Virus record (IMG/VR): IMGVR_UViG_3300042569_001383
Span: 24,125 to 88,124 of that record
From: a virus
Lineage: Duplodnaviria > Heunggongvirae > Uroviricota > Caudoviricetes
Length of the DNA: 64,000 bases
Direction: 5' to 3' (one strand)
Shown: positions 10,017 to 38,234 of the stretch, piece after piece
How the letters are laid out: every line of letters starts with the position of its first letter
How positions within the stretch are numbered: position 1 is the stretch's first letter
Position numbers and translations under genes: made by a program
Notes under the pieces: model-generated
The model's input: the letters and a program-made list of their open reading frames with translations, nothing else
Database searches by the model: none
What the model was told of the DNA's origin: nothing

Positions 10017-10052
10017 ACTTATAAATATATGAAATAGTTTTGTAATTTCCAA

Positions 10053-10520
10053 TCACCATTTGCGACAAGACCAATATCGAGCTGTTGTTCTATCCTTTGC
10101 AGTCTGACACCGATGACGGGCTCTAAATGAACGTCGACGTGCTGGATTATTTTTGCGTATACGCATTGTTTTTTGACCAGCTTTTTTTGCTGAAGTGCCA
10201 CCATGACCGAAATTAACTTTAACTACATTGCCTTTGTCATTTTTAACATACACTTTGAATTTTTTCACATCACCACGAGTTGGTTTTCCTAGTTGAACTT
10301 TGCGACCTTGGTATTCCGCTTCATTAAGACCCGGTACCATTATTTCAATCATCTCTGGCTTATCTGTGGCATACGCTTCTTTAATGTATTCAATCAGACA
10401 TTGTTCACAATAGCCTTCAGCTTCTTTGATTGGAACGCAGTTAGGTACTTGTTTTCCGCCTTTATCTTTCATTCCATATTGTTGGTAATCTTTCCAACAA
10501 GCTTCGTCGATGTAATGCAT
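10053..10520 (-). CDS. hypothetical protein with a basic C-terminus
   Basis: 155 aa, Arg-rich tail. Confidence 0.35.
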   Translation of the reverse strand: MHYIDEACWKDYQQYGMKDKGGKQVPNCVPIKEAEGYCEQCLIEYIKEAYATDKPEMIEIMVPGLNEAEYQGRKVQLGKPTRGDVKKFKVYVKNDKGNVVKVNFGHGGTSAKKAGQKTMRIRKNNPARRRSFRARHRCQTAKDRTTARYWSCRKW

Positions 10521-11269: not shown

Positions 11270-11280
11270 ATTAATAAATA

Positions 11281-11838: not shown

Positions 11839-12224
11839 TAATATACTCCATGTTTTCTCAATTCATTTACTGCATCTTTTACTGCAGTTTTGTTGTCATA
11901 CATTTCGGATAGCAATGATTTTAATTTAACCGCACAATCATTGAAAAATGTTGGATGAACTTTGCTTTGTTTTTGTACATCAGCAATCCAATACGAGTAA
12001 GCTGGATATGTTTCATTGAATTGGTCACTAGATGTTCTGTTTGCCCAAAATTCAATTTGATCCTTGAGTGGCCACATATGAAGTGGAACTGATGCATCTT
12101 TACGAATTGCTGACTCAAATGGTTTATTGGCATTTCTTTTTGCATTTCTGCTAATAAACTTGTCCATGATGTTGATGGAACGATCTTTAGGCGACATGCC
12201 CGTGTGTGCTGACTTTTTACCCAT
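11838..12224 (-). CDS. hypothetical protein
   Basis: 128 aa ORF. Confidence 0.4.
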   Translation of the reverse strand: MGKKSAHTGMSPKDRSINIMDKFISRNAKRNANKPFESAIRKDASVPLHMWPLKDQIEFWANRTSSDQFNETYPAYSYWIADVQKQSKVHPTFFNDCAVKLKSLLSEMYDNKTAVKDAVNELRKHGVY

Positions 12225-15553: not shown

Positions 15554-15568
15554 TTTTATATAAATATC
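15554..15568 (-). promoter_or_regulatory. motif B core (cttttatataaatat) upstream of the 56 aa membrane-protein ORF
   Basis: Same 15-nt core as at 5140-5154 and 29847-29861. Confidence 0.35.
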
Positions 15569-16398
15569 TAGGCAGTATATAACCATCTAGGATTAACTTT
15601 AATTACATATTTATCAGGACGTATGGTATCTCGGTGTATTACATGTCCAATCTGCAATACCGGGCCACCTGTCACATCTGCTGGATTTACGGTTGAGTAT
15701 AGACCAATTGAACTATCTTGTACGAATACAGAATTACCAATTGCTATAGTATCATCATCTTGTATTGGAATTCCGCCTATAGGAGTACCTCCTACTCGAA
15801 ATCCTGTAATATATCCAGATAGTAATATCATTCCGTTGCTGGCGTTGCTATTCAATGCAACTCCCATTAATGGAAATTTGTTTACATCATATGATGATTG
15901 CTCTAGTTTTTTCCAATCGCCGCCGGCGTTTAAATACATCGCCGAACAAGAACTAGCAGTTGCTTGAGATGTATCGCCGGAAATAATCTCACCATATGCA
16001 AAAAACGTACTAGCTTTATCGAGTAAACCATCAATCGAGCCAGATGCATAATAATATGTAAGTGAACCTGTTATCATTACATCATCAGTTACAGTTACTG
16101 GTCCGTCAAACAGATTAGATCCACTTGTTATTAATCCATTTCTTAGAGTAACAGATCCGGTAACTATTAAAGAGCCAGTAACGGTTAATGAGCCAGTTAT
16201 TCTAGCACTACCGGTATATGGAAATCCTGCTGACACACCGCTTAATTGCGAACCATCTCCCTTAAAAGATCCGGAGAAAGAACCTGTTGCAATTATTGTA
16301 TCTGTTGATACGCCACTTAATGCATCTATAGCTCGGGTTACATGTTCTGATTGTATAGTACCACCATCCGTAATACCTGTTTTATTTATTATTGCCAT
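15568..16398 (-). CDS. Gly/Ser/Thr-rich fiber-like structural protein (putative tail fiber or collar)
   Basis: Repetitive GS(L/I)TVTGS segments typical of beta-helical fiber proteins. Confidence 0.35.
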   Translation of the reverse strand: MAIINKTGITDGGTIQSEHVTRAIDALSGVSTDTIIATGSFSGSFKGDGSQLSGVSAGFPYTGSARITGSLTVTGSLIVTGSVTLRNGLITSGSNLFDGPVTVTDDVMITGSLTYYYASGSIDGLLDKASTFFAYGEIISGDTSQATASSCSAMYLNAGGDWKKLEQSSYDVNKFPLMGVALNSNASNGMILLSGYITGFRVGGTPIGGIPIQDDDTIAIGNSVFVQDSSIGLYSTVNPADVTGGPVLQIGHVIHRDTIRPDKYVIKVNPRWLYTA

Positions 16399-16572: not shown

Positions 16573-17625
16573 TCATACGTTATTCCAATCCGTTAATGCA
16601 TTTCTGATTTGCATCAACAAAGTTTGTTGTTGTCCGTTCATCGGTATTTCAAATACTCGAGTTCCTGGAAATGTATATTGTTGTTCTGGATGCAATATTT
16701 TTGAGAAACCCGTATCGTCAATTCCTAATACCGGATATGCAACGCGTTGCATCGTTATGCGATTGCTAGGAATCATGGTGCAACGTCCCGGATGTTCCCA
16801 TTGACCACGTGGATCTTCTACAGCATCTGTATGTTGCATTATGGTATTCCAATCCGTTTCCGACATTATTTGTTTGCGTTTCATGTGACTTGCTAATAAA
16901 TCAACGTGCGATGTGGGTTTGGTAACATCTGCTACAGTTTCTACTGTTAATTGATTCATTGTATTTGTTTGTAACATGTTCTTTAAACGTTCTAAATAGC
17001 CGGTGTTACGTAGCTTCTTGTAAGCTAAATTTTCAATGGAATATTCACCTTCGGCTTCTAAACCGGTTTCACGCATTCTGCGTAATTGCAACAATATGGT
17101 TTGTATTTTGATATGCAATTGCGGGTCTTCTGGTTGCAATGCATCAATTGCATATTCAATTGGTTGTGCTTTTTGGTCAATTATATCATCATCAATTGTG
17201 ATTACGTCAGCCGATGGTTGTTTGATCCATTTATCATGTGCCAATGAATATTCTCCAACCGTTGAATGCAATTCTTCATTGGAATCTTGTGCATACAATT
17301 CAATAGCCATGCCTTGATATGTTAACGGATAATTTGCGTTCCACAATGATTTTTTTGCCATCATGTAATTTTTAACAAGATGTAAATTTTTATCTACGGC
17401 ACCATAATCAATTACAACATGCAAATCAATATCACTATGTTCCGTCCAATTGTAATTGGCATTGCTACCTATTAAAATTATGTCCAATATTGGTACATTG
17501 ATATCTAAAAAATCATAAAAATGTTTTGCAATCTTAACGAATTTCAATCGCAACTTTGGTTTAAGCGTAACACCATCCCAAAGCTTTGGATTCAATGTAC
17601 TTTGCGTTTCATATTCGTTTATCAT
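16573..17625 (-). CDS. nucleotidyltransferase of the Pol-beta superfamily (cGAS/DncV-like or MNT-like)
   Basis: LIGSNANYNWTEHSDIDLHVV matches the GS-x9-13-DxD NTase core, followed by a helical C-terminal region. Start is 3 nt downstream of the preceding 618 aa ORF, so probably translationally coupled. Confidence 0.5.
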   Translation of the reverse strand: MINEYETQSTLNPKLWDGVTLKPKLRLKFVKIAKHFYDFLDINVPILDIILIGSNANYNWTEHSDIDLHVVIDYGAVDKNLHLVKNYMMAKKSLWNANYPLTYQGMAIELYAQDSNEELHSTVGEYSLAHDKWIKQPSADVITIDDDIIDQKAQPIEYAIDALQPEDPQLHIKIQTILLQLRRMRETGLEAEGEYSIENLAYKKLRNTGYLERLKNMLQTNTMNQLTVETVADVTKPTSHVDLLASHMKRKQIMSETDWNTIMQHTDAVEDPRGQWEHPGRCTMIPSNRITMQRVAYPVLGIDDTGFSKILHPEQQYTFPGTRVFEIPMNGQQQTLLMQIRNALTDWNNV

Positions 17626-19502: not shown

Positions 19503-20177
19503 TTACAAAGTGTTTAACATGGCAATCATTCGGGGACATGGATATATGTCAATTTTATCTCGACGATAACTGTTATGTGAATACAATCCATTTTCGCCTC
19601 GAAGTGCTTTGGTATTCACAGCAAACATTTGCTCGTAATTGTAAGTTAAATCAATTTTATACATATTTTTCCAATATGTTAATAATTGACGGGTTGATTC
19701 AATTTGTGCATCCGAATATTTGTGGAAGTAACGATATCCTTTGTAAGCTAAAGGTAATTCAGTTACTTGATCAGCCGGAACTTCGCGGTCAACGTAGTTA
19801 TAAAATTTACCGTTGCGACTTTCTAATTGTCCCCAATTGCAAATTTCAATACCAATTGAATGTTTATCTAATTCTACATATGGTACTTTGTATGCACGAA
19901 ATACTTCTTGTTTAACACCTAAATGATATGCCCAATGGCGTGAACTAAATGCTTGGCAAATTTCGCCATCTGGACTTGTTCGATTGCCTGGACCTGATAT
20001 AGTTACACAAGTTGCAATGCGGCCGCGGTCATCTGTGTTCCAATTGCTAATTGTAGCAACGCCTGATGAATTACCGGCGGTATGATGCAATACAATTTGT
20101 TTCTTTGCAACTTCTTGTTTGAAGTATTGTGATTCTGCTAATGGAACTTGTTTAATTTTTGTTAAATCTAAACTCAT
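19503..20177 (-). CDS. N-acetylmuramoyl-L-alanine amidase (Amidase_2/PGRP-like)
   Basis: IVLHHTAG and HWAYHLG motifs reminiscent of the T7 lysozyme and AmpD family. Confidence 0.55.
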   Translation of the reverse strand: MSLDLTKIKQVPLAESQYFKQEVAKKQIVLHHTAGNSSGVATISNWNTDDRGRIATCVTISGPGNRTSPDGEICQAFSSRHWAYHLGVKQEVFRAYKVPYVELDKHSIGIEICNWGQLESRNGKFYNYVDREVPADQVTELPLAYKGYRYFHKYSDAQIESTRQLLTYWKNMYKIDLTYNYEQMFAVNTKALRGENGLYSHNSYRRDKIDIYPCPRMIAMLNTL

Positions 20178-20620
20178 AACTCCGTTTCTTTTTTTGTTTG
20201 ACGCTCCCCTTTGTGGAAGTCAATTTTATCTAATATTTGATTTAATAGTGGCGATGGAATCCATCCTATCATTGATGCATTCTTCAATGCACTGATTATC
20301 TGAAATACAATAAATGGTATAAGTATAGTTTCACTCAACCAACTAGTTCCAGCAAATCCTTTTTCTACTGTTAACAATACCGTAGTGAATATCACCCAAA
20401 CAACTGCAGTTCTTAAAACTTTTAATGCTTTAAAGGTTAAAAATCCTTCACGTTTGATTCCAGCCATTACGCCGAAAAATCCATCGAGTAATACAACTGC
20501 TAGTACGGATAAATATTGTTCAAAATTATCCATCGTTAAATTGTAAAAATATGAACAAACGAATGAGATTGCTGTCGTAAACGAAAATGCTATTAATGGA
20601 ATTGTCTTCATTCTTTGCAT
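20174..20620 (-). CDS. multi-TM membrane protein, putative holin, co-transcribed with the amidase
   Basis: 148 aa with about four hydrophobic helices and a charged C-terminal tail (KGERQTKKETEL). 4 bp overlap with the amidase gene. Confidence 0.45.
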   Translation of the reverse strand: MQRMKTIPLIAFSFTTAISFVCSYFYNLTMDNFEQYLSVLAVVLLDGFFGVMAGIKREGFLTFKALKVLRTAVVWVIFTTVLLTVEKGFAGTSWLSETILIPFIVFQIISALKNASMIGWIPSPLLNQILDKIDFHKGERQTKKETEL

Positions 20621-20672
20621 GGTTCTGTGGTTTTATGTTAGTAAACTATTATTATCTATGTATAAATATGGT

Positions 20673-21836
20673 TTACTTACATTTAATTAGATTTTTTTCA
20701 TATGTTTCCGCAGACCATATAGTAATTAACAAATTACCTAACGCAAATGTTTCTCCAGGCTGATTGAACTCTGAAAGTAAACTATCTGCAGCTAGAATTT
20801 CCGGTAATTGTTGTATGTATTGAAAATCCGTATTTGTAATACGTTTCACATCAAATGCAACTATGATATCATTTTCATCATTCGGAACGTTTTGATTGAT
20901 GTGTAATACTCGAGTTCTTAAATCGTATCGAGTATTAGGTTGTTCTCGTTCAATATATGCATTGACAATCACTTCCATTTCATCTTCTATGTATATTCTA
21001 TCGCACCATGGTTCTAATGCTTCTAATACCGGAAGTGTGCAATTGTGTACTACGAATGCAATGTTGTATTTAGGCGCGTTGCTTTTACTGCCCCACTTTC
21101 TGATATAGTTTCGATTGGATGCTAATTCGATTGCTTGAGTTCTTCGTTCATATTCTTCTGAAAAACGAGATGTTTTGGATACGAAGTGATAACACATTGC
21201 ATCTAATGCTGTAAAACATTCCATTCCTAACATTTTCCATCTACGTATTAAATCATCATCTTCACAAAACATTGGATTGTATAGCGGGTCTAATCCTCCA
21301 ATTTCTAACAATTCTTTTCTAGGCATACACATAAAAAACGTAATACCTGGCTCCGTTTTGTCTTCATAACGTGCATGTTCGATTTCACAATACTCGCGGA
21401 ACAAGTCTTTAGAGAACGTTTCCAATGACTGTCCAAAATCGAATATCAATTTACCAGGACGAGTATGATCACCGAATATAGGCGGTTCTATTGTGGTATA
21501 CGACACTATTCGATTGGGTGCTACATGTTTTTCTAAATTTTCTAAAAACTTTGGACCTAATACTATATCATTATGCAAATATGCTACGTAATCACTAGTA
21601 GCAATAGTTGCTGCCATATTAAATGTATCAGAAAATGTTTTATTTTCTTCGGAATAGAAATATCGTACGTATTTATCACGTAATGAATCTAACCATTCAT
21701 GCGTTCCGTCAGTTGATCCATAACTTACAAAACATAGTTCCACATCCGGATATAGTTCTCGAGTTGTTTCGTAAAAATGTTTGTTGTAGTCTAAATTATT
21801 TTTTAATCCTACTAGTAGTGATATGTTATTTTTCAT
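20673..21836 (-). CDS. glycosyltransferase, GT2-like (GT-A fold)
   Basis: N-terminal LCFVSYGSTDGTHEWL pattern typical of GT2 nucleotide-sugar binding regions. Confidence 0.5.
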   Translation of the reverse strand: MKNNISLLVGLKNNLDYNKHFYETTRELYPDVELCFVSYGSTDGTHEWLDSLRDKYVRYFYSEENKTFSDTFNMAATIATSDYVAYLHNDIVLGPKFLENLEKHVAPNRIVSYTTIEPPIFGDHTRPGKLIFDFGQSLETFSKDLFREYCEIEHARYEDKTEPGITFFMCMPRKELLEIGGLDPLYNPMFCEDDDLIRRWKMLGMECFTALDAMCYHFVSKTSRFSEEYERRTQAIELASNRNYIRKWGSKSNAPKYNIAFVVHNCTLPVLEALEPWCDRIYIEDEMEVIVNAYIEREQPNTRYDLRTRVLHINQNVPNDENDIIVAFDVKRITNTDFQYIQQLPEILAADSLLSEFNQPGETFALGNLLITIWSAETYEKNLIKCK

Positions 21837-22714
21837 TTTAAGTATTTACTTTGTAATTTTTGAACTTCGTCGATTAATTTACTATCCGATTCTTGTCGAA
21901 ATTGATTTCTATCATTGGTATTAACTAATAAATTACCATATGCATTTAATCGATACTTATGATTTTCGGAAACAACTAAATTTTCAACTACCCATTGTTG
22001 TACATCCAAGTTGGCGTGTTTTAAGATTTGAGCCCCATACATTAAAAATGTATCATCTGGTCCATATGATCCAAATGAATCTGGCAAATCTATTAATTGA
22101 AGTAAATTTGCAGATATTAAATTGAACCAGCCACCGCCTAATTTAAAAGTTGGTATTGGTTTTAACAAAGGATTTCCATACATCGTAGTTATAACGGTAT
22201 ATGGATCTATAAATGTTTTGTTATCCCATGGAAAATTTGAATATGATGAATTCATTAAAACATTCCAAGAATCATCCCACAATTTTGGAATCTGTGGAGA
22301 GATTATAAAATAATCATTATTAACGTGTTTAGCTGAATCTAATAATAATTTTAATGTTAATGGCGAAAAGATTAAATCGGCATCTAAATAAATAAATGCG
22401 TCTACATCTTTATATGTTCGTATACTATGTCTACGTTTATCTGCACACCCCATGCACGTTTCATCGATATTAATATCTGATATAACGGTGCACCAATCAA
22501 AACAGGTATTGATACAATGATTAAACTTTTCTATGAAAAATTCTTTTGGTATTTTTGAATTTTCCCAATCTACAAAGTTTAAATTTAAAGTTATATCTAA
22601 TGTTACGTGATCATCGGAATCTAGATAATGACTACTTATTTTAAGTTGTTTCGATTGCCATTCAAACCAATCAATTTCATATGGCATTAAATGAACTATA
22701 ATTTGTGTTTTCAT
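21833..22714 (-). CDS. putative glycosyltransferase (DxD-like YLDADLIF) or hypothetical
   Basis: Embedded in the GT island. Possible DxD motif. Confidence 0.3.
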   Translation of the reverse strand: MKTQIIVHLMPYEIDWFEWQSKQLKISSHYLDSDDHVTLDITLNLNFVDWENSKIPKEFFIEKFNHCINTCFDWCTVISDINIDETCMGCADKRRHSIRTYKDVDAFIYLDADLIFSPLTLKLLLDSAKHVNNDYFIISPQIPKLWDDSWNVLMNSSYSNFPWDNKTFIDPYTVITTMYGNPLLKPIPTFKLGGGWFNLISANLLQLIDLPDSFGSYGPDDTFLMYGAQILKHANLDVQQWVVENLVVSENHKYRLNAYGNLLVNTNDRNQFRQESDSKLIDEVQKLQSKYLK

Positions 22715-23571
22715 ATGTATGTTTTATATAATTGTATGTGTTGGCTAGCAACGTATTTGCTATTGCATTTTTGTTTAATATATTCCGGAGCAATTGTTTC
22801 AATTGATTGAATGTCCCCATTAACATCGATAATGTACATGTATCCTGGTACATCGCAACACCACCCTTCTAATGTAGTTCTGCCTAATAATATGCCAGCA
22901 GTAAAATGCATCATTTGAACTAGGTTTTCGGTATCCCATCGTTTATCTACATACTTGATGTTCGGATGATTGAAATTATGACGACTTTCACTCATTATAT
23001 ATAAGTCCCAATCATTTTCTATGCATTGTTGAACTATATGTCGAACTGCATTAAATCTAATTGGATCTAATACTTCGCCAACAAATATGCCAGAGTATCG
23101 TTCTAGTTTTTCAGCTTCGATGCTATTAAATCTAGTTTGATCAATTGGATTATAAATTAATGAAACTTTGTTTTTCGGAATTTTATAATCATTAATCAAC
23201 ATGTCCGCAATGGGTTTTCTTATTGCAATGTAGTGTGCAATCCTAGGATCTAATACCGGATCTTCTGACCTAATTTCCGAATGAATAATGCTAATAATTG
23301 GAGTATCTTTAAAATGTTCTAACATAAACAAGTTAACTTGTGGTTGACTTGCTACTATTATATCGTATTTTTCCGTGATATCCAAGTTTGTCGTATCTAA
23401 TTGTCGTACGTGTTGTAATTTCAGTCTAACTTGATTCATCCAATCAATTTGCCGCAACGTAAACAATGTCACATCATGTCCTGCTAAATCTAATTCTCTG
23501 GCTAATTCATAGTGATATAATTCACTACCGCCTAAGCCATTGGCATTAATACAAGCTAAAAGTATTTTCAT
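22711..23571 (-). CDS. GT-B-like glycosyltransferase N-domain protein
   Basis: MKILLACINANGLGGSELYHYELARELDLAGHDVTLFT resembles the Glyco_trans_4-like N-domain. The protein is short at 286 aa. Confidence 0.4.
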   Translation of the reverse strand: MKILLACINANGLGGSELYHYELARELDLAGHDVTLFTLRQIDWMNQVRLKLQHVRQLDTTNLDITEKYDIIVASQPQVNLFMLEHFKDTPIISIIHSEIRSEDPVLDPRIAHYIAIRKPIADMLINDYKIPKNKVSLIYNPIDQTRFNSIEAEKLERYSGIFVGEVLDPIRFNAVRHIVQQCIENDWDLYIMSESRHNFNHPNIKYVDKRWDTENLVQMMHFTAGILLGRTTLEGWCCDVPGYMYIIDVNGDIQSIETIAPEYIKQKCNSKYVASQHIQLYKTYI

Positions 23572-24164
23572 GGTTTAAATCTATTATAGTTATTTAATAT
23601 TGATTGATTATAATCTCGATGTCCATTTTGCAAATCAGAATATGATGGTAATTGATATGCAATCATCGGATCGCACATATATACGTTATGATTAGACATT
23701 AAGTTGTAATAATGCACATCTATTTCGCACGTTTTTGGTAAATTTAGTATGGTATCATAAAATCGTTCATGAACGAAATATGCATGTGCAGCGTACGCGC
23801 CATTTAATTTTAATAAAGTATCTGAAATGCGAGTGGCGCGTGTTTGTAAATTCGCTCCTAAAAAAAACATATCCCATTCGAATGTTTGTACTTCCGTAAA
23901 TGCATTGTTTAATATGTCAACAACATTATCGGTAAATATGGCATCATCTTCTAATATTAAAACGTATGGAAGTTCATTTTCTTTCGCTAATCGTATACAT
24001 TTAAGATGTGATTCGAAACATCCCATTGCTGGATTAAAATGTTGAATAGCATCGACGATTTGGGCTTGCGATAATTCTAATTTAGTTATTTCATTGATAA
24101 TGTGATAATATCGATCTTTACGATGTTTTAAATTTATAACATATGTTGGTATTTTTATTTTCAT
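23568..24164 (-). CDS. glycosyltransferase family 25-like (LPS/LOS beta-glycosyltransferase type)
   Basis: N-terminal YVINLKHRKDRYYHI pattern as in GT25 (INL..R..R). Confidence 0.5.
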   Translation of the reverse strand: MKIKIPTYVINLKHRKDRYYHIINEITKLELSQAQIVDAIQHFNPAMGCFESHLKCIRLAKENELPYVLILEDDAIFTDNVVDILNNAFTEVQTFEWDMFFLGANLQTRATRISDTLLKLNGAYAAHAYFVHERFYDTILNLPKTCEIDVHYYNLMSNHNVYMCDPMIAYQLPSYSDLQNGHRDYNQSILNNYNRFKP

Positions 24165-24934
24165 TTTTTAACGATAAGTAACCAATTTGGGTTGGCATGA
24201 GTTTTAGGATACTCAGGTAACACTTCGACTGAACTAAAATATTTAGTCATTTCATTAATTAAAAATTCTTTTCGATCATCCCATATATTCATTAAAAAAT
24301 ATCCGTATTGGCAATGTTTAATTATAGTTTCAATATAAAAACTAATACCAGCCCTATCAAATTCGCTTAAGCACCAATTTGAGATAACTAAATCATATGA
24401 TTTTAGTGGAATTTCCGTTGTTTTAAAAAAGTTAATATTAGAATAGTTAAATAAATCTAAATACGTATTGCATAATGATAAAGTTTCTTTAACATCAACA
24501 CAACTATATGTATTAATACCATAATCTAAAACAATTTTTGCTTGTCCTCCGTAACCCGAACCAATTTCTACAATATCAAATTTTGAAATATCTCCGAAAT
24601 TATGTTTTAAACTTTGTACTATATTCATGAAGTATAAAGTACCGGGCGATATATCTCCTATTTTCGGATACGAATATATATTAGGAGACCCATATATATC
24701 ATTTGTTTTAAATTTATCAATGTGCCGCAATATATCAGTATCGTCTTTAACATTATCATATAAAACATCTGATACATGTTTTCCTAATACGTCATTACCA
24801 ATAACGCATCGAAAAATATGATTTTGTTTAAATGTATCAAACGCCGTTTGATTATTAACAATGTGTTCACATTCTTGCAAGAATGTATTTCCTATTTCAT
24901 TTTGAAATATCCAGTTTCCGTCAAATTGTACCAT
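24161..24934 (-). CDS. class I SAM-dependent methyltransferase
   Basis: IVEIGSGYGGQA Rossmann GxGxG motif followed by an acidic residue at the expected spacing. Confidence 0.5.
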   Translation of the reverse strand: MVQFDGNWIFQNEIGNTFLQECEHIVNNQTAFDTFKQNHIFRCVIGNDVLGKHVSDVLYDNVKDDTDILRHIDKFKTNDIYGSPNIYSYPKIGDISPGTLYFMNIVQSLKHNFGDISKFDIVEIGSGYGGQAKIVLDYGINTYSCVDVKETLSLCNTYLDLFNYSNINFFKTTEIPLKSYDLVISNWCLSEFDRAGISFYIETIIKHCQYGYFLMNIWDDRKEFLINEMTKYFSSVEVLPEYPKTHANPNWLLIVKK

Positions 24935-24935
24935 G

Positions 24936-25580
24936 TTATATTAAATTTTCTTTTTTGAATACTTGTTCCCATCCGTTTTCTTTCTTAAATCCTGACCGCA
25001 TGAAATTGAAATATATACGTTCAGATACTGCATTTAATAAAATAGTTGGATTCAAATTTGAAGTAAATGTATTGCCAACTAATTCAAAATCCCATGGGCT
25101 GTATTCTGGTTTCATTACTGTTTTAAGAAATTCCGTTTTCCATATTGCTGGTTGTACGGAATTCTGGTATAAACTATCGTTGTCTAATTTATACAATGAA
25201 TCTTTGATATGTGTTAGTTTATATTCAACCCAATCCGTAACAATTTCGAACATGATTTTATCAGCTGAATATTGATTCATGATATCGATATGAGTTTTAA
25301 TAAAATCGGCACCGATATTAGTAGTCATATAATAATCATCTAAAATAAAACAAACGTATTCCGTTTTAATTTGATTTAAACCAGCTAATATGCGTTGTCC
25401 CCAAGTTAATCCTAAACCTGGCAGTATGTTATTATACTCCCCAGGCATTGGTATCGTTTCTCCAACTACTATAACTTCACAATCTATATTCCAATATCGT
25501 TTAAATAAAATATCAAAATTTTTCCAAATTGGATTATATGCATCACACGTTCCAATTAATATAGTTAACGTATCTTTCAT
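24936..25580 (-). CDS. hypothetical protein in the glycan island (possible GT-A)
   Basis: 214 aa. FILDDYYM has possible DxD character. Confidence 0.3.
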   Translation of the reverse strand: MKDTLTILIGTCDAYNPIWKNFDILFKRYWNIDCEVIVVGETIPMPGEYNNILPGLGLTWGQRILAGLNQIKTEYVCFILDDYYMTTNIGADFIKTHIDIMNQYSADKIMFEIVTDWVEYKLTHIKDSLYKLDNDSLYQNSVQPAIWKTEFLKTVMKPEYSPWDFELVGNTFTSNLNPTILLNAVSERIYFNFMRSGFKKENGWEQVFKKENLI

Positions 25581-26437
25581 ATTAAATTTTTAATTTCATT
25601 TATAGTAAAATGTTCTACTTCGTTTGAATATGGGCCTTCTTCTAATACCTTTTCGTGCATATTTTCTCCAGGCTGCAATCCAATAACTTTAATAGAAATA
25701 GATTGACCGTTTCCGTATTTAAGAATCATTGCTTGTAACAAATCATCTATACGCATAGATTTCATGATAGGACAATATGGTTTTGAGTCGGTTGAATGTT
25801 TCATACAATCAATTATTAATTGAATCGCCTCATCTACTGACCAGAAGAATCTAGTCGCACTTGGTTCAGTAACGATAACTTCTTTTCCTTGTTCGATTAA
25901 ATCTTTCCATTTGCAAAGAACCGAGCCTGTTGAATATAAAACATTTCCATATCTTACGGTACGATACATTACATTAGGATTCAATTCTTCATATTGTTTA
26001 ATTGCACGCTCCATTAAGAATTTAGTAGCACCGTATACTCCGGCAACTTGTGCTGCTTTATCCGTTGAAACCGATAATATGAATTTCAACGTTGGATGAT
26101 TTATAGATTGTTCTAGAATATTTATTGACCCAATGACATTGGTTTTGATATTCTCTCTAACGAATTTTTCTGCTAAGCCTACATGTTTTGATGCAGCTAA
26201 ATGAAAAACACCAGTTACATTTTGCATTGCTTGTCGTACTTCGAACTCATCTGATATATCTCCGGTGTATATGTCGACTTTCGGATACGTTTCTTTAAGT
26301 GTGATTAATTTGCCTTCATCTCTGCTAATAACTCGTACATTTCCGCCTTGTTTTAATATATAACCAACTAACGGATATCCTAAGAATCCAGAACCACCTG
26401 TAATTAGATACAATTTATCTTTTTCAATTGTTATCAT
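25577..26437 (-). CDS. NAD-dependent sugar epimerase/dehydratase (SDR family, CapD/PseB-like)
   Basis: LITGGSGFLG Rossmann motif at the N-terminus. YxxxK region present. 286 aa. Confidence 0.75.
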   Translation of the reverse strand: MITIEKDKLYLITGGSGFLGYPLVGYILKQGGNVRVISRDEGKLITLKETYPKVDIYTGDISDEFEVRQAMQNVTGVFHLAASKHVGLAEKFVRENIKTNVIGSINILEQSINHPTLKFILSVSTDKAAQVAGVYGATKFLMERAIKQYEELNPNVMYRTVRYGNVLYSTGSVLCKWKDLIEQGKEVIVTEPSATRFFWSVDEAIQLIIDCMKHSTDSKPYCPIMKSMRIDDLLQAMILKYGNGQSISIKVIGLQPGENMHEKVLEEGPYSNEVEHFTINEIKNLI

Positions 26438-26440
26438 GTT

Positions 26441-27070
26441 TTATCCTATTTTTTCGTAATATTCGTTCTGTTTTTCTTGTTTTTCAATATCTTTAACGTG
26501 AATCAATGCAAACTCTTCAATATCTGCTGGAAGAACTGCTTCTAATCGAAATCCGGTTAATGTTTCGTGTACACGTCCGGTCCATGTAATTTCTGGAATG
26601 TTTTTGCAAATTCTAGATTGGAAATCTGGATAATTGATGCGTTTACGCGAATCAACTCGCCAACCCCATTTTTCAATGTGAGCATCAGTGATTCCATTAA
26701 CTCGATTAACGCGTGGCACTCGAATCATGTCAGCTGGCGTATTTATAGATAAAATGTCGGGTAAAATTCGCATAAAATAATCAGTAACCATTTCATCAGC
26801 ATCGAGGAATACAATGTAATCTCCATTACATAATGATTTTAAACGATTTTTCCACGCTGCAAAATCACCATCGAAATTATCTTTATGCCAAGCAAATTCT
26901 CCATTAACTGAATGTGAACGCAAATAGTTTTCAATTTCTAAATCACCATTTTTTGCATCGTATAAAACCACAATGTTATCTTGCAGTCTTTTTGTTTTTA
27001 ACAAGTGTGTAATTAATCTTTGAATTTCAACGAACTCATTACATACCGTAATTGCGTAACTTATTTTCAT
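26441..27070 (-). CDS. glycosyltransferase, GT2-like
   Basis: ISYAITVCNE start and FLDADEMV DxD motif. Confidence 0.55.
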   Translation of the reverse strand: MKISYAITVCNEFVEIQRLITHLLKTKRLQDNIVVLYDAKNGDLEIENYLRSHSVNGEFAWHKDNFDGDFAAWKNRLKSLCNGDYIVFLDADEMVTDYFMRILPDILSINTPADMIRVPRVNRVNGITDAHIEKWGWRVDSRKRINYPDFQSRICKNIPEITWTGRVHETLTGFRLEAVLPADIEEFALIHVKDIEKQEKQNEYYEKIG

Positions 27071-27100
27071 ATTGTTTTATTTATAATAAATATTTAATGA

Positions 27101-28345
27101 TTAATTTCCAACCTTTTGTAATTTAGGCAATTTCAATTCAAAAGCTTTTGGTATTGTAGAAACACCAGCATCTATAATTTCCAATGCTTGATCATATATT
27201 AAACTAACAGCTTCTTCTGTAAATGCACTAATTGCAAAATAACGTTGACGTTTTCCTAAGGTTAACCATGTTTTATAATTTTTAAGTACTTCTTGCATCA
27301 TTTTGCCAGCGTATCCGTAATCTGGAGTAAACCATTTTGCATCGGCAATTAAAAATTCATTTTGTGCCGACGGATGTATTGTAGTTAATTGACCAGGTAT
27401 AGCACATATGAAATCTTTCTTTAAGAAATCAGCTTGTCCTGAATAATGCGGAGCAATAATAGGCTTACCGGTACTGGAAAATTCTAATAATGGTCGGCCA
27501 AATCCTTCTGCTTTTGTAAATGATATCATAGCCTTAACTTTTGTGTGATTGTATAACGCATTCATTTCTGCTGTGGTTAAATCACCATGTAACAAGTATA
27601 TGTTAGGCAATTTATCCGTTGCTGGGAACATGTTTTTAATTTGTGTTATTTTGTCTTTGATTTCGAATCGATCCGTTATCGAATAAGTTGCTCCACTCGT
27701 TTTAAGTAACAATGCAGGTGCTGATTTTTTATTTTTAAATGTATTGAAAAAACAATGAATTAATCCACTAATATTTTTTCTATCTTCGCCGGCTTGTCCT
27801 TGCAACCAATGTCCTACACTTAATAATACATCGGATTCTGGGATATTATCTAAACCAGCAACTGATGTTGTTATGTTTTTATTATCATATGCAACCGTAT
27901 CGAAATATTCCGGAATTACAATTAATTGTGTGGTAATAGTTAATGCGTTTCTTTTAGCTGTTTCCACAAATACTGATTTAGTAAATTCACTCGGAACAAT
28001 TACTACTTGCATTTGATTGATTTTTGCAATCCAATCGGCAGGACAAATATCTCCTTCGGTACCGGCAGTTACACCGATATTGTATTTTCCGATTGATTGA
28101 AATTCGTTTGGTACTGTAATTTGTATCCAAATATCAGGCTGTGCTGTTAATGGCAATGGTATGATTCTTTGTTGCCAATCCATTGGAATTGGATATGTAA
28201 ATGGAGTATGTCCCCATGGCATTGAAAGTAATTTAATGTCCCATTCGGTGCCACGTTTATCAATAAATTGTTTGATAATTTCGCGTGCGTGGTGTCCGTA
28301 ACCGCTTTGTGTAGCTAATGGTGATGATATAACTGCTGTTCTCAT
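27101..28345 (-). CDS. GT-B glycosyltransferase (GT4-like)
   Basis: AEGFGRPLLEFSSTGKPIIA matches the GT1/GT4 E-x7-E donor-binding motif. Confidence 0.55.
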   Translation of the reverse strand: MRTAVISSPLATQSGYGHHAREIIKQFIDKRGTEWDIKLLSMPWGHTPFTYPIPMDWQQRIIPLPLTAQPDIWIQITVPNEFQSIGKYNIGVTAGTEGDICPADWIAKINQMQVVIVPSEFTKSVFVETAKRNALTITTQLIVIPEYFDTVAYDNKNITTSVAGLDNIPESDVLLSVGHWLQGQAGEDRKNISGLIHCFFNTFKNKKSAPALLLKTSGATYSITDRFEIKDKITQIKNMFPATDKLPNIYLLHGDLTTAEMNALYNHTKVKAMISFTKAEGFGRPLLEFSSTGKPIIAPHYSGQADFLKKDFICAIPGQLTTIHPSAQNEFLIADAKWFTPDYGYAGKMMQEVLKNYKTWLTLGKRQRYFAISAFTEEAVSLIYDQALEIIDAGVSTIPKAFELKLPKLQKVGN

Positions 28346-29832
28346 TGTACTATTCCTGTTTTCTCGTAGTTTGTTTCTGTAATTGGTGTTAACGTGTATC
28401 GCATTTTAAGTAGCGGTTTAGATGCAAACAAGTATTCAATCATTTCAATCATTTTTTTACCCATTTGTTCTGCAGTTAATCCGTTTTGCAATGCCCATTC
28501 GCGTCCTGCATTTCCCATTTGTTCGCGAAGCGTTTCTGGTGTATCGTACCAATATCGAATTGCATTGGCTACATCTTCATATGATACTCGGTCATCGAAT
28601 ATATATGGTGTTTGGGGTGATCCTTGAAGTGAACGATTGCTTGGAAATACTGGTTTCGCCCAAACTCCGTGCAATTTATATTTACCGGTGTGGTTCGAAG
28701 AAAAGTCAGCATCAAATTGTATCCATTCTTCATTTTCATCAACGAAACCACATTGATCTTGCAATCCGCCGGTAACATTGTTAACAATTGGAGTGCCAGC
28801 TAACATTGATTCCGTTGAGCTTAGTCCCCACCCTTCATTTGAACCAATATTCACTGTAACGTCAACTACATTGTACAATGCATTAAGTTCTGGCGCTGTC
28901 ATTTTTGCTTCTGAAAATAAAACCTTACAATCAGGTGCCAATGTTTTCCATACCGCACGTAAATCAGTTCCATTTCCATCTACAACTTGCGTGTGCATTA
29001 ACAAGGCAACTCTCGAACGTTGTTCTTTAGGTAATTGATCAACAAATGTTTTAAATGCTAAAATCAAATCTCCAGGTTGTTTTCTTCGAATATTTCTGTT
29101 ATTCCAAAATACTACAAAATCAACTCCATTTGCTCGTTTAACTTGATCATACATTTTGATATATGTAGGATCTGTTGCTTCTAATGGTTTGTATATGTTA
29201 TGATTTAAACCATGTGGGACAAAACCTGTAATAACTTCGTTCACATTAACATTCGATGGAACAGTTTCATCGTAATCGTAATTTACAACCCCAAATCCAT
29301 TCTGTTTAAGTACTTCTCTATGGATATTGTCCGATTGCTTGCTAATTCCCATAATCAAATCACAACTACCGTAAAAAGGCGCATTCCACATTGGATATGG
29401 TAAATCGTCCCAAATTGAATAGTATATTAATGGAATACCATACGTTGTTTTAATTTCATGTTCAATTGCATATAACCAAGTCCAATAACGTGGATCCGTA
29501 AAATGAAATATTGCATCTGGTTTTTCTTGTTGAAGAATTGAAAATAAAATATTTCTATCTCCATATCCATTCCATGCAATCAATTTAACTGATGCATCAT
29601 CTACTCCAGTTTCTTTGCGAATATCTTCTGACAAATCAAATCCTTTGCCAGCGTCGGGGTGTTGTAATGCCGCACCCAATTGAACCCAATCATACTTGTG
29701 AACTGTATTCAAAATGATTTCTTTGCTAATCGTTCCGATTCCAGACGGTAATCGAAAATCATCGGCTAACAATAAAATTTTCTTTTTCTTCGGCTTGTTA
29801 GGGTCGATTTTTTGTAACTTTGGTAACTCCAT
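28342..29832 (-). CDS. GT-B glycosyltransferase (GT4-like), first gene of the island in transcription order
   Basis: NEGWGLSSTESMLAGTPIV E-x7-E motif. Preceded by the conserved motif B promoter-like element at 29841-29861. Confidence 0.5.
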   Translation of the reverse strand: MELPKLQKIDPNKPKKKKILLLADDFRLPSGIGTISKEIILNTVHKYDWVQLGAALQHPDAGKGFDLSEDIRKETGVDDASVKLIAWNGYGDRNILFSILQQEKPDAIFHFTDPRYWTWLYAIEHEIKTTYGIPLIYYSIWDDLPYPMWNAPFYGSCDLIMGISKQSDNIHREVLKQNGFGVVNYDYDETVPSNVNVNEVITGFVPHGLNHNIYKPLEATDPTYIKMYDQVKRANGVDFVVFWNNRNIRRKQPGDLILAFKTFVDQLPKEQRSRVALLMHTQVVDGNGTDLRAVWKTLAPDCKVLFSEAKMTAPELNALYNVVDVTVNIGSNEGWGLSSTESMLAGTPIVNNVTGGLQDQCGFVDENEEWIQFDADFSSNHTGKYKLHGVWAKPVFPSNRSLQGSPQTPYIFDDRVSYEDVANAIRYWYDTPETLREQMGNAGREWALQNGLTAEQMGKKMIEMIEYLFASKPLLKMRYTLTPITETNYEKTGIVQ

Positions 29833-29840
29833 TTTATCCT

Positions 29841-29861
29841 TTATAACTTTTATATAAATAT
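29841..29861 (-). promoter_or_regulatory. motif B upstream of the glycosyltransferase island
   Basis: Identical 21-mer to the groEL upstream element. Confidence 0.45.
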
Positions 29862-29863
29862 GA

Positions 29864-30268
29864 TTATCCTAAGATAACCACCGGTTTTTGTAACTTGTTA
29901 ACATTAGAATATGCTGTTTTTAATACAGGATCTAATGCAGATTCGTTTGACATTATTATCATGTAATCACAACGTTGTGCAATTAATTTCATGCGATGAT
30001 GTAATTGACTAAAATGATATGGCTTTCCGTAATAAGTCTCAGGCATTGCTGAATATATATTGTATCCTGAAAATGAAGGATTATATTCTTCATATTGAAT
30101 GCCAAATTCCAATGCATATTTTTTAACCATGTGATTTGCTCCTTCATTTCCTCCTGCTCCTATAACAATTAATTCGGTACCGAATCTGGCTTTAAGTTGT
30201 TGCAAAGTTTCTTGCACTTTTCTTCGGTTTTGCCATCCGGTATTTCCAATTACTGCAATTTTATTCAT
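29864..30268 (-). CDS. SLOG/DprA-like Rossmann protein (DUF2493-like)
   Basis: IAVIGNTGW ... VIGAGGNEGANHMV ... MIIMSNESALDP pattern recalled from Smf/DprA-LOG superfamily phage proteins. Confidence 0.45.
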   Translation of the reverse strand: MNKIAVIGNTGWQNRRKVQETLQQLKARFGTELIVIGAGGNEGANHMVKKYALEFGIQYEEYNPSFSGYNIYSAMPETYYGKPYHFSQLHHRMKLIAQRCDYMIIMSNESALDPVLKTAYSNVNKLQKPVVILG

Positions 30269-35926: not shown

Positions 35927-37189
35927 TTAAAATTTAAAGAATTTATTGAAATTTTCTGCATCTGTAGTTGAAATGCTACTTCCGCCGAACTTTTTATATG
36001 TTTTAATGTATTTTTCGTACGTATTCAATGCTGCATCTGGATCTCCGAACATTTCGTGTAATGAAAGGATTACATCATATAAATCTTTAGGAACAACCGT
36101 TTCTAATAATTCAACGTGACTGTCTACCATTTGATTGATATCTTCTGCTGCGCGGACGTATAAATGCGTATTATGAACAACCATTCTAGGCATAGCTTCT
36201 TGTGAATAACGATCCAATCCAGTTGCGGTTTGTCCACCTAATAATTCATAAGTAAAATCTTCGCACGCAGGGCATCCTAATGAACACGGAACATGCTGTG
36301 TTAAATCTATGCTAGTTGCATCGGGTCTACCTTGTTTAATATGATTCTTTCTGCGATATTCAGCATTTTTTGGAAAATACAATTCAGAAAACGTTTGAGT
36401 TTTGTAATTTGTTGAATGCAAATATGTTCCAAATACTGGATATTGTCCTGGCGAGGAAGAATCCGTAGTAATGTATATTCTATTGCCGGTATGTTTATTC
36501 ATTAATTTTTGCAATGTTGCTAAAATGAAAAAATCCGAAATTTTACTAATACCTAATAAATGTACATATTCTAATCTAGGATTTTCAAATTCGCGATTTT
36601 TTAACATTAATGCCACCGCAAACATGAAATCTACTAATTTTTGAGGACCACCAATCGCCCACCCTTGGAAATCAAAATGTTTAAATTTATGATACCACCA
36701 AGTATATTCATCGGTATTTGATCCTTGCAACATGTTTAAGAATTTGGTTTTTCCACTTTGATGTTTTTCAAACCAAGCAAAATTATCAAAACTAATGTCA
36801 GCACAATGTGCAAATTGATTTCTATATTTATTTTTCGGCGGAATATCTAAATTTGCAGCTACATCGCTATTAGCTTCTAACCAATGAAAGATTTTTTCTC
36901 GTAATTCATTGCTATATGGCAATGCACCGGTTGCAACCTGATATCCACCTGAGTCGCCAAATGTTAATACATCTTTTTCTAAACCCAATTGTTCTCGAAA
37001 ATCCATTTTTTTATAATGATGCCCCGCAGTAACCAAGAAGTAAGGGTGTCGCCATTCTTTTGGATATCGAGAATCAAAGAATTTTACGGGTGCACCGCTT
37101 TCAAATTTCATATCCTTCTTAAATGCAGATACCATAGATCCTGCAGATAGAGACGGAAAATATATGAAACGTTTATTTTGTTCGTTCAT
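35927..37189 (-). CDS. dpdA: DpdA-like DNA-guanine transglycosylase (TGT family)
   Basis: VLTFGDSGGYQV matches the TGT catalytic DSGGFQ loop. C-terminal Cys/His cluster HVPCSLGCPAC ... H resembles the TGT zinc site. FolE, QueD and QueE lie 5-10 kb away. Confidence 0.65.
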   Translation of the reverse strand: MNEQNKRFIYFPSLSAGSMVSAFKKDMKFESGAPVKFFDSRYPKEWRHPYFLVTAGHHYKKMDFREQLGLEKDVLTFGDSGGYQVATGALPYSNELREKIFHWLEANSDVAANLDIPPKNKYRNQFAHCADISFDNFAWFEKHQSGKTKFLNMLQGSNTDEYTWWYHKFKHFDFQGWAIGGPQKLVDFMFAVALMLKNREFENPRLEYVHLLGISKISDFFILATLQKLMNKHTGNRIYITTDSSSPGQYPVFGTYLHSTNYKTQTFSELYFPKNAEYRRKNHIKQGRPDATSIDLTQHVPCSLGCPACEDFTYELLGGQTATGLDRYSQEAMPRMVVHNTHLYVRAAEDINQMVDSHVELLETVVPKDLYDVILSLHEMFGDPDAALNTYEKYIKTYKKFGGSSISTTDAENFNKFFKF

Positions 37190-38234
37190 TGTATTCCTTT
37201 AGTTTATTAATTAATTGTTTTGCTGAAAAAAAGTTATTATGTAACTTTTGCACTAATTGTGCTATTGATTCTGATATTTCTTTGTGTTCGTATTCTAAAA
37301 TTGCACGTGCTGCGTCATTTACCGAATCAGCTCGTTTAAACATCGGGTCATACATTTCCGTATAAGACAACCGATTTGGTACTATAGGACATGCACCAGC
37401 ACACGCTGATTCATACATCGAAATACCCAATGTTTCTTGGTCTGCAAATGAAACTGCAAATCGTGCACGTTGTAGCAATTCATGATATTGCGATTTCGTT
37501 AAATTCATTTCCATTGCTACACAAAATTGATAATGTTTCAAGTCTGGATGTTTTGCTAATCTTTGAAATAAATCTAATCGTTTCTCAGGAGCTATTCGAT
37601 GCGGAAATACTATGATATTTTCTTTTTTAGCCCACAACTGCGGAGCAATCATTGTTTCCGTGTATTCCATTGGCCAACCCGTTCTATCGAAAGTCGGATT
37701 ATGTGCAATATCATACGTTTTCTTCATTAAATTAAAATGCGCACTAGTTGCTAACCAATTATGGTCAAATGCACCAATGAATGCTTGTTCTGCGTGCCTA
37801 ATCCATGGTTTATCTCCCACGAGACGTCCTAAAAAGTCATACGGGTCATATGAACCCGCGTGCCATAATCCGTGCGTTACAACGGGAATATTTAAAAGTT
37901 CACTCATGTATTTAACATTGATGATACCCGGGTGCCATGCATCGGTAAATACTATTTGGTCACCCGGATTAATTTTGCCTTGAGTAAATAACTCAGCTAA
38001 ACGATGCGTTTGCGTTGCCTTGTACATGTTAGTGCCACCAAAGTTCAAAAATGCACCTGGAGTAACGGCATCTGGTATATCAAAGTCGCCTTCGATTACT
38101 TCAACGTCAAATCCATTATCTCGCAATAAAGCGGGAACGTGCCATTTCCATTCGCAAGTATATCGAGTAGGTACTGATTCTAAATCTACTAAAAATATTT
38201 TCATGTTACCTTTCAATGATTGCACCGTTTTCAA
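37173..38234 (-). CDS. GT-B glycosyltransferase resembling T4 DNA beta-glucosyltransferase
   Basis: C-terminal ADQETLGISMYESACAGACPIV E-x7-E motif. N-terminus MKIFLVDLESVPTRYT resembles T4 BGT MKIAIINMG ... FKTVPSSETIY. Overlaps the DpdA-like gene by 17 nt. Confidence 0.45.
   Translation of the reverse strand: MKTVQSLKGNMKIFLVDLESVPTRYTCEWKWHVPALLRDNGFDVEVIEGDFDIPDAVTPGAFLNFGGTNMYKATQTHRLAELFTQGKINPGDQIVFTDAWHPGIINVKYMSELLNIPVVTHGLWHAGSYDPYDFLGRLVGDKPWIRHAEQAFIGAFDHNWLATSAHFNLMKKTYDIAHNPTFDRTGWPMEYTETMIAPQLWAKKENIIVFPHRIAPEKRLDLFQRLAKHPDLKHYQFCVAMEMNLTKSQYHELLQRARFAVSFADQETLGISMYESACAGACPIVPNRLSYTEMYDPMFKRADSVNDAARAILEYEHKEISESIAQLVQKLHNNFFSAKQLINKLKEYNERTK

Follow-up and report, generated by a model that had tools for sequence, protein, structure and literature searches.

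The window analyzed here is a 64,000-nt stretch of phage DNA (positions 24,125 to 88,124 of the IMG/VR record IMGVR_UViG_3300042569_001383, Caudoviricetes), and it carries at positions 20673-29832, on the minus strand, an island of ten glycan-enzyme genes. Here we report the family and fold assignments of these genes, their division in related phage contigs into a conserved three-gene core and an exchangeable seven-gene cassette, and a tentative interpretation in which their products glycosylate the virion. The ten open reading frames (ORFs) were confirmed at the coordinates given in a preliminary description that had been made from the sequence alone. Six of the junctions between them are 4-nt start/stop overlaps, the other three are gaps of 1, 3, and 30 nt, and no terminator-like hairpins were found on the minus strand within 20673-29832. 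Judged from profile matches and structure models, the island codes for eight glycosyltransferase-fold proteins (three GT-B and five GT-A), together with a predicted nucleotide-sugar dehydratase and a predicted sugar O-methyltransferase. A hydropathy test detected no transmembrane (TM) or other hydrophobic segment and no signal peptide in any of the ten proteins, a check suggested by the preliminary description, and the enzymes are hence predicted to be cytoplasmic.

Family assignments were made with the Pfam, NCBIfam, and PHROGs profile libraries. The first gene of the operon (28342-29832, 496 amino acids) encodes a putative GT4-like core GT-B glycosyltransferase, whose match to Pfam Glycos_transf_1 passes the gathering cut-off (28.4 versus 26.4 bits, E 1.4e-6) and whose C-terminal domain contains the E-x7-E motif EGWGLSSTE (E333-E341). 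Its nearest solved relative is the GT4 enzyme B736L of chlorovirus NY-2A (6e-8, over the C-terminal nucleotide-binding domain only), and more than 8000 homologues were found in a metagenomic protein collection. The protein is 47% identical to its counterpart in the Flavobacterium phage immuto and 44-48% identical in the Microcystis phage Mel-JY01. The second gene (27101-28345, 414 amino acids), coupled translationally to the first through an ATGA overlap, encodes another putative GT4-like GT-B enzyme, which matches phrog_2170 'glycosyltransferase' at 1.4e-16, scores under the 26.4-bit cut-off for Glycos_transf_1 (21.6 bits, 1.7e-4), and has the motif EGFGRPLLE, in which E280 and E288 are invariant among 40 homologues including those of the Flavobacterium phage vB_FspM_immuto (immuto) and the Microcystis phage Mel-JY01. 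Both core GT-B proteins match phrog_2170 at 1e-16 to 1e-17, and the family profile of the second likewise matches B736L (4e-4, C-terminal domain only). These matches and motifs point to GT4-like GT-B glycosyltransferases in both cases. The third and last conserved gene (26441-27070, 209 amino acids) encodes a predicted GT2-like GT-A glycosyltransferase (Pfam GT2 1.3e-6) with a DAD motif at residues 90-92. When the window is translated in all six frames, the peptide LPKLQK appears at just two places (27113-27130 and 29809-29826): the first core enzyme carries it at its N-terminus (MELPKLQK...), the second at its C-terminus (...ELKLPKLQKVGN). In immuto, three such repeats, LKLPTLKK, IELPQTKK, and VEIPRLKK, close the second enzyme. 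Peptides of this type may be a docking or association motif shared by the two core enzymes.

The remaining seven genes, here called the cassette, begin with a short-chain dehydrogenase/reductase (25577-26437, 286 amino acids) that resembles the UDP-N-acetylhexosamine (UDP-HexNAc) 4,6-dehydratases PseB and FnlA. It matches Polysacc_synt_2 at 2.3e-62, TIGR03589 PseB at 1.5e-47, and FnlA at 1e-37, the latter two under their equivalog cut-offs (162 versus 408 bits for PseB), and is thus called at the family level only. The second cassette gene (24936-25580, 214 amino acids) and the sixth (21833-22714, 293 amino acids) encode proteins without a Pfam family, listed as two unknowns in the preliminary description, and were modeled with AlphaFold from alignments of metagenomic homologues and compared with known structures by Foldseek. 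The model of 24936-25580 (predicted local distance difference test, pLDDT, 95.2) has B4GALNT1, TarS, SpsA, TarP, and WrtF as its top PDB hits (E about 1e-7, probability 1.0), and that of 21833-22714 (pLDDT 93.2) has chlorella-virus hyaluronan synthase, ppGalNAc-T, TarP, and mannosylglycerate synthase (E about 4e-7). The top 50 PDB hits of both models, at probability 1.0, are nearly all GT-A proteins, with a few nucleotidyltransferases for 24936-25580. With L80 and D82 invariant in the ILDD motif of 24936-25580 and D111-x-D113 invariant in 21833-22714, both are predicted to be GT-A glycosyltransferases with a DxD-type acidic motif.

The third cassette gene (24161-24934, 257 amino acids) encodes a likely sugar O-methyltransferase, which matches NCBIfam TIGR04371 'putative sugar O-methyltransferase' above the cut-off (65 versus 44 bits, 7.6e-18), has VEIGSGYGG as its S-adenosylmethionine (SAM) motif I, and gave no Pfam match at 0.01. 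It is followed by a predicted GT25-like GT-A glycosyltransferase (23568-24164, 198 amino acids; Pfam Glyco_transf_25 8.5e-16), which also matches phrog_2835 and phrog_854 'glucosyltransferase', and by a short GT-B-like glycosyltransferase (22711-23571, 286 amino acids), whose match to the Pfam Glyco_transf_4 N-domain (1e-11) covers that domain and not the C-terminal half. The cassette ends, after 21833-22714, with a GT2 glycosyltransferase (20673-21836, 387 amino acids; Pfam GT2 3.3e-14) that has a C-terminal extension of about 150 residues and is 35% identical over its full length to immuto gp169, the protein that likewise closes the immuto cluster. PDB sequence searches gave nothing informative for 22711-23571 and 24161-24934, or for 35927-37189 and 37173-38234 outside the island. 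All ten consecutive minus-strand genes are thus glycan enzymes by hidden Markov model and fold profiling, as the preliminary description had proposed. Its individual calls, namely two GT2-like and one GT25-like GT-A enzymes, E-x7-E motifs in the first two genes, a third GT-B-like N-domain protein, a dehydrogenase-type epimerase or dehydratase, and a SAM methyltransferase, were borne out by the matches given above; the two unknowns still lack a Pfam family and have now been assigned a fold. The inventory also agrees with its proposal of a phage-borne multi-enzyme operon able to make a methylated oligosaccharide.

A 22-nt element, ATATTTATATAAAAGTTATAAA, lies upstream of the operon (29840-29861, minus strand) and ends 8 nt before the first start codon. 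Only two copies occur in the 64 kb (chance expectation 0.03), the other being at 5133-5154 before groEL, so that the motif B of the preliminary description indeed precedes the first gene of the operon and groEL only. In about 55 distinct relatives, the counterpart of the first gene is preceded by the same element, the bases around it having diverged, and the position and conservation of the element suggest that it acts as a promoter. Its 9-nt core, ATATTTATA, precedes the glycan operon, groEL, the holin-like gene described below, a ribonucleotide reductase gene, two small ORFs, and a fibre-like gene encoding CUB and discoidin domains. The sharing of the element by the operon and groEL, and of the core by the holin and fibre-like genes, in contrast to the different element of replication genes and several metabolic genes, is a weak hint of late co-expression; as the core also precedes the ribonucleotide reductase gene, the element does not assign the operon to a temporal class. 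A second and distinct element, TTCATATAATA(TAAAAAAA), is found 5-17 nt before six start codons (3262, 7362, 8590, 31433, 32643, and 44365), all on the minus strand and none on the plus strand; it stands ahead of the nuclease gene, of the CobS/CobT-like genes, and of the gene from which the queuosine-pathway genes follow. A scan for sigma-70 promoters returned 67 sites versus 70.9 expected, which is no better than chance, and was not used. Directly upstream of the operon is a gene for a YAcAr (YspA/cpYpsA-related SLOG) protein (29864-30268), which is 73-97% identical in close relatives and absent at the corresponding position in immuto and Mel-JY01.

The organization of the island was compared in 144 loci from IMG/VR contigs, collected with two probes, the upstream PD-(D/E)XK nuclease, which has 344 relatives in IMG/VR, and the glycosyltransferase encoded by the second gene of the island. 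The first three genes (26441-29832) are present and syntenic in every locus long enough to judge, with amino acid identities to the window of 73-90% for the first, 59-90% for the second, and 36-91% for the third, and other genes stand in relatives in the place of the seven genes at 20673-26437. The comparison of relatives suggested in the preliminary description to see whether the island is accessory therefore has a divided outcome, in that the seven-gene cassette is replaceable and the three genes before it form a lineage-wide core. In the closest relatives, nucleotide similarity breaks off at 26441-26443, where the third core gene has its stop codon; in more distant ones the upstream break falls within that gene, at 26651-26846. 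The downstream junction is the intergenic region before the holin-like gene (20621-20684, minus strand), which contains a partial copy of the promoter-like core at 20661-20669, and similarity to one relative (L093) resumes at 20684 with 89% nucleotide identity. The GC content is 31.1% in the cassette, 34.8% in the trio, and 35.1% in the remaining window. Relatives thus exchange their cassettes at two fixed sites: one is the stop codon that closes the third core gene, the other the intergenic stretch ahead of the holin gene.

The exchanged genes are highly diverse. Among 45 non-redundant relatives, we distinguished 30 architecture groups and 169 protein families, 87 of which were seen once, and complete cassettes range from 5 to 11 genes and from 4.1 to 8.6 kb. 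In a Pfam scan of 150 family representatives, the matches were mainly to NAD-dependent epimerase/dehydratases, GDP-mannose 4,6-dehydratase (Gmd), and RmlD-type reductases; the same scan identified FkbM and other methyltransferases, GT2, the GT10 and GT11 fucosyltransferases, cytidylyltransferases, DegT aminotransferases, and hexapeptide acyltransferases, and several families resemble, by eye, NeuB-type nonulosonate synthases and RmlC cupins. None of the 436 proteins from the cassette regions of the 45 relatives has at least five TM-like segments by a crude hydropathy measure that is adequate for proteins with 9-14 TM segments, and a Wzx, Wzy, initiating phosphoglycosyltransferase, or Gtr-type protein is therefore absent from them; the few multi-TM proteins in these regions have at most four TM-like segments and are chiefly small holin-like proteins at the boundary.

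The full cassette of the window was found in no relative and is a mosaic of modules that occur separately elsewhere. In one relative (L086), three cassette genes are 86-87% identical at the amino acid level and the core genes 55-79%, with 55% for the third. Another relative, the 114-kb contig IMGVR_UViG_3300042896_000657 (L154), has a nuclease and core glycosyltransferases that are just 43-46% identical to those of the window, and encodes at 6471-12096 nearly the same cassette with 53-80% amino acid identity, comprising the dehydratase, GT-A, methyltransferase, GT25, short GT-B, and GT2 proteins in the order of the window except that the GT-A protein and the methyltransferase are swapped. The cassette of this contig is closer to that of the window than its core is, which indicates that whole cassettes pass between deeply diverged members of the lineage.

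The phage genes that flank the island, and their strand, were the same in over 100 independent contigs, and a profile of the second core enzyme had only two matches in 185,579 bacterial and archaeal species genomes (one genome each), both on phage-like contigs. On these grounds, we rejected contamination or a prophage polysaccharide locus as the source of the island: the locus is a lineage-specific phage feature and not a captured host polysaccharide locus. The preliminary description had named two findings that would speak against it, namely that most ORFs are not glycosyltransferases or that relatives carry the genes within a host polysaccharide locus; profiling identified glycosyltransferases, and the relatives have conserved phage flanks. 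The block of a nuclease and three glycosyltransferases also occurs, with 36-48% amino acid identity, in immuto, in Mel-JY01, and in a 93-kb phage-like contig binned with a metagenome-assembled genome (MAG) of a Firmicute. The core enzymes match only seven INPHARED records. In immuto, which infects Flavobacterium sp. LMO8, the cluster is deposited and annotated as gp181-gp169 of NC_055915, so that the statement of the preliminary description that such a cluster is uncharacterized in Bacteroidota phages holds for its function and not for its record. A Pfam 'GT4-conflict' match in homologues of the core enzymes is sub-threshold, overlaps the generic GT4 domain, and was not taken as evidence of a conflict system.

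Almost all genes of the window are on the minus strand. They include T4-type replication genes (PolB, clamp loader, sliding clamp, gp32-like protein, UvsX/RecA-like protein, and DnaB-like helicase), groEL, CobS/CobT-like genes, and a class II ribonucleotide reductase. Nuclease and clamp-loader genes border the island at one end, and at the other come the holin and amidase genes, which are no glycan genes. The holin-like protein (20174-20620, minus strand; phrog_199 holin 8e-6) has four hydrophobic segments, consistent with four TM helices, and serves as a conserved downstream anchor, with 91% amino acid identity in one relative (L002) and 64% in immuto; the amidase gene (19503-20177, phrog_1794) follows it. 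No lysogeny genes were noticed in the window, and the label 'lytic' is suggested by its T4-like gene content. Neither the island, searched by megablast, nor the window as a whole has a nucleotide-level match among 50,697 phage records, and relatives were therefore sought at the protein level. The nearest isolate by PolB is Mel-JY01 (45%), and the nearest by the island core genes are immuto and Mel-JY01. A Bacteroidota host is plausible from the 46-65% amino acid relatedness to a Flavobacterium phage. One homologue with 77% identity comes from a MAG labeled Microbacteriaceae, a probable mis-binning that was not taken as evidence of the host.

Elsewhere, the window encodes enzymes of the 7-deazaguanine pathway, namely a QueE-like radical SAM protein (42386-43171), QueD/PTPS (43489-43974), and the GTP cyclohydrolase I FolE (46233-46937), together with a zinc-ADH-like protein (44393-45313) and a GFO/IDH/MocA oxidoreductase (45314-46240) within the same region; QueC, QueF, and DpdA were not seen in the window. 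Because immuto replaces all its deoxyguanosine (dG) by fdPreQ1 (PMC10516641), the window phage probably also has 7-deazaguanine DNA.

The ten genes form one phage-encoded cytoplasmic operon dedicated to the assembly of an oligosaccharide. We propose that the conserved trio would start the glycan on a conserved, not host-specific, acceptor, the PseB-like dehydratase would make a donor of the 6-deoxy-HexNAc type, and the other cassette enzymes would extend and decorate the chain and so set the 'glycotype' of the phage. The acceptor would be one or more structural proteins of the virion, glycosylated in the cytoplasm before or during assembly. By analogy with other viruses, we assign a probability of about 0.45 to the reading that the operon glycosylates virion proteins with strain-specific glycans. 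A conserved acceptor specified by the phage is favored over a strain-variable host glycan because the block is conserved, with 37-47% amino acid identity, in phages reported from different host phyla. The soluble enzyme set, the strain-level diversification with rare and methylated sugars, and B736L as the nearest solved relative of the core GT-B enzymes are also in its favor. Glycans on capsid and tail-tube subunits have been reported for the mycobacteriophages Che8, Corndog, and Myrna (Freeman et al. 2023, as summarized in PMC12619734 and PMC12363180), and giant viruses have clade-specific glycan clusters (PMC10117803). A wider version of the proposal, somewhat more tentative, is that a widespread virulent lineage of aquatic T4-like (Immutovirus-like) phages may coat its virions with strain-specific, O-methylated glycans of rare sugars, using a fixed three-enzyme priming module and a cassette swapped at two junctions. 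As tentatively, the sugars of such a coat might include 6-deoxy-HexNAc, fucose or perosamine-type sugars, and nonulosonic acids, with cassette switching giving rise to viral 'serotypes'.

Several points weigh against glycosylation of the virion. Its acceptor is assigned by exclusion and analogy only. GT-B enzymes that use lipid-linked acceptors are also soluble or peripheral, and host intermediates linked to undecaprenyl diphosphate, followed by export through host proteins, are compatible with the lack of TM segments. The structural module of the phage, where candidate acceptors would be sought, lies outside the window, and the host phyla of Mel-JY01 and of the MAG-binned contig are taken as reported or binned. 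The 9-nt core upstream of the operon also sits 80 nt upstream of the ribonucleotide reductase gene. Finally, comparable islands of pelagimyophages and cyanomyophages have been interpreted as modifying host O-chains (PMC7029224, PMC12801897).

The preliminary description had named three possible targets, virion proteins, DNA, and host surface glycans, of which the first and the last stand and DNA is disfavored by the nucleoside composition of immuto (PMC10516641). Remodeling of the host surface is the main rival explanation, possible and yet in our view rather doubtful. The enzymes would act at the cytoplasmic face on lipid-linked precursors of the host O-antigen, capsule, or O-glycans, to be exported by host flippases and ligases; superinfection would be blocked, or progeny would not be lost on lysing cells and debris, and the diversity of cassettes would track that of host glycans. 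It is the reading published for the hypervariable glycosyltransferase islands of pelagimyophages and cyanomyophages (PMC7029224, PMC12801897), and it would fit the O-antigen- or capsule-like content of the locus, with its rare-sugar pathways, GT2, GT4, GT10, GT11, and GT25 enzymes, methyltransferases, low GC, conserved flanks, and variable center. However, none of the 45 cassettes encodes an initiating transferase, flippase, polymerase, ligase, or Gtr-type membrane protein, and the core family is essentially absent from the 185,579 cellular genomes. Among phages assigned to different host phyla, the trio keeps about 40-47% identity, which is not what one would expect of enzymes that must recognize strain-variable host glycans. 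The lysis genes adjoin the island in the window phage, which would suit an action on the host, but this adjacency is kept neither in immuto nor in Mel-JY01.

Two further targets have less in their favor. All the enzymes are soluble, and the neighboring YAcAr/SLOG protein belongs to a group linked in the literature to nucleotide-centered systems, as might be expected if the acceptor were a free oligosaccharide, a glycolipid, or a glycosylated host or non-structural phage protein, with a role in host physiology or the sequestration of nucleotide sugars. We consider such an acceptor improbable: diversification at the strain level by rare sugars and methyl groups typically marks surfaces that are exposed and under selection, and not internal metabolites, and the promoter-like element stands between the operon and the YAcAr gene, which is missing from this position in immuto and Mel-JY01. 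Hypermodification of DNA, in which sugars would be attached to a modified base to evade restriction, as in the glucosyl- and arabinosyl-hydroxymethylcytosine (hmC) of T-even phages, and the variety of cassettes would stem from an arms race against modification-dependent nucleases, has an even smaller chance. In its favor, the PD-(D/E)XK nuclease gene always precedes the operon, which lies in the half of the genome that holds the replication genes; some proteins homologous to the first enzyme have weak matches to Pfam 'GT4-conflict' (25.7 bits versus a cut-off of 26); and viral glycosyltransferases are reported to add diverse glycans to DNA (Pyle 2024, cited in PMC12619734). Nevertheless, liquid chromatography with ultraviolet and mass-spectrometric detection of the nucleosides of immuto, which has a homologous core and cassette, identified only dA, dC, dT, and fdPreQ1 in place of dG (PMC10516641), and the window has another modification route in FolE, QueD, and QueE. 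No family match to a dCMP or dUMP hydroxymethylase-like protein or to T4 AGT/BGT was obtained for the approximately 45 window proteins scanned, and eight transferases and a methyltransferase far exceed any known DNA glycan. DNA glycosylation is thus unlikely, with trace modification being compatible with the immuto data.

Other genes of the window may also bear on glycans or their recognition. A further GT-B glycosyltransferase (37173-38234; Glycos_transf_1 4e-6, phrog_4356), separate from the island, overlaps an unannotated ORF of 420 amino acids (35927-37189), and the pair lies between the sliding clamp and PolB genes. The 422-residue product of 8635-9903 contains CUB (8e-8), discoidin/F5-F8 type C-like, and GpJ FNIII-like domains and is probably a carbohydrate-binding fibre or adhesin, and 15568-16398 has a sub-threshold match (0.0019) to a 'chlorovirus glycoprotein repeat'. 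The window encodes a full T4-type family B polymerase (38580-41096) and, at 56449-57798, a 449-residue ORF with a weak family A match (5.7e-10); the polymerase annotated in immuto is of family A, and the lineage of that phage appears in papers that deal with the swapping of polymerases. Nucleotidyltransferase-like proteins are encoded at 999-1736 (CCA-adding/poly(A) polymerase family, PolyA_pol 5.6e-20) and at 16573-17625 (weak Pol-beta-type matches, phrog_36119 2.5e-45).

Glycosyltransferase islands of phages, hypervariable lipopolysaccharide-like regions of aquatic T4-like phages, virus-encoded glycosylation of virions, and the annotated genes of immuto were already known. As far as the searchable literature goes, the new observations are the arrangement in which a fixed trio of enzymes, preceded by a conserved element of its own, leads into an O-antigen-like cassette bounded by sharp junctions, the extreme variety of cassettes and the evidence that they are transferred as wholes, the location of the site outside the structural and tail-fibre region, and the fold assignment of two glycosyltransferase families that have no Pfam family. 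The same literature yielded no functional study of the clusters of immuto and Mel-JY01, which are annotated only. To our knowledge, virion glycosylation by viral genes has been established for giant viruses and a few mycobacteriophages and not for abundant environmental phages, and we know of no target given for the large glycosyltransferase islands that have repeatedly been noted in the latter. The locus offers a clean, testable case, with a putative priming trio, sharp junctions, 30 architectures among 45 relatives, and a cultured relative with published DNA chemistry. Were the glycan carried by the virion, it would point to a kind of surface diversity among phages that has gone unrecognized, with possible effects on adsorption, grazing, the stickiness of particles, and host range; were it carried by the host, it would be direct evidence for the long-proposed remodeling of surfaces by lytic aquatic phages. 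In either case, the cassettes are a reservoir of unannotated glycosyltransferase families.

The locus can be compared with several known systems. The T-even phages, with their glucosyl- and arabinosyl-hmC DNA, and the temperate phages with Gtr seroconversion clusters likewise encode their own glycosyltransferases. However, the scanned window proteins include no hmC pathway and no AGT/BGT match, and neither the island nor the cassettes of relatives encode membrane proteins of the GtrA, GtrB, or GtrC type, for which there were no Pfam or PHROG matches. The bacterial O-antigen and capsule clusters resemble the locus in their conserved flanks, low-GC variable center, mosaic exchange of modules, rare-sugar genes, glycosyltransferases, and methyltransferases, but the window system lacks an initiating phosphoglycosyltransferase, Wzx, Wzy, an ABC transporter, and a chain-length regulator, and its carrier is a phage of virulent type. 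The HRC of pelagimyophages and cyanomyophages (Zaragoza-Solas et al. 2020; P-SSM2, S-SCSM1, S-SCSM2R) is similarly a hypervariable region of aquatic T4-like phages with glycosyltransferase and deoxy-sugar genes (PMC7029224, PMC12801897). It differs in being inside the structural module, from VrlC to gp14, and mixed with tail-fibre genes (PMC7029224), whereas the window locus lies between replication and lysis genes, has no fibre genes within it, and has a fixed three-enzyme core and sharp junctions; none of the seven matching INPHARED records with core-enzyme homologues is a pelagimyophage or cyanomyophage of the HRC type.

The nuclease, two GT-B enzymes, small GT2 enzyme, and cassette of sugar-modifying and glycosyltransferase genes follow in the same order in immuto and Mel-JY01, although the immuto cassette has WecE-type aminotransferases, a 'pilin glycosylation protein', a mannosyltransferase, and an epimerase, and its lysis genes are elsewhere. 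The glycosylation operons of Che8, Corndog, and Myrna, compared here by their description in the summarizing sources, also encode glycosyltransferases that act in the cytoplasm, and do so in a small operon that lies apart from the structural module; they are smaller, belong to phages of Actinobacteria hosts, and are not described as having a core-plus-cassette organization across hundreds of relatives. The chloroviruses (PBCV-1 with its capsid glycans, and NY-2A with B736L) and the Megavirinae (clusters of 6-33 genes) resemble the locus in combining nucleotide-sugar pathways with glycosyltransferases and in placing bacterial-like rare or methylated sugars on virion proteins (PMC10117803), but these are giant viruses of eukaryotes that vary at the level of clades, whereas the variation here is at the strain level and cassette-like. 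The features that the window shares with the virion-glycosylating viruses are predicted soluble glycosyltransferases and sugar-tailoring genes in a lineage-specific cluster.

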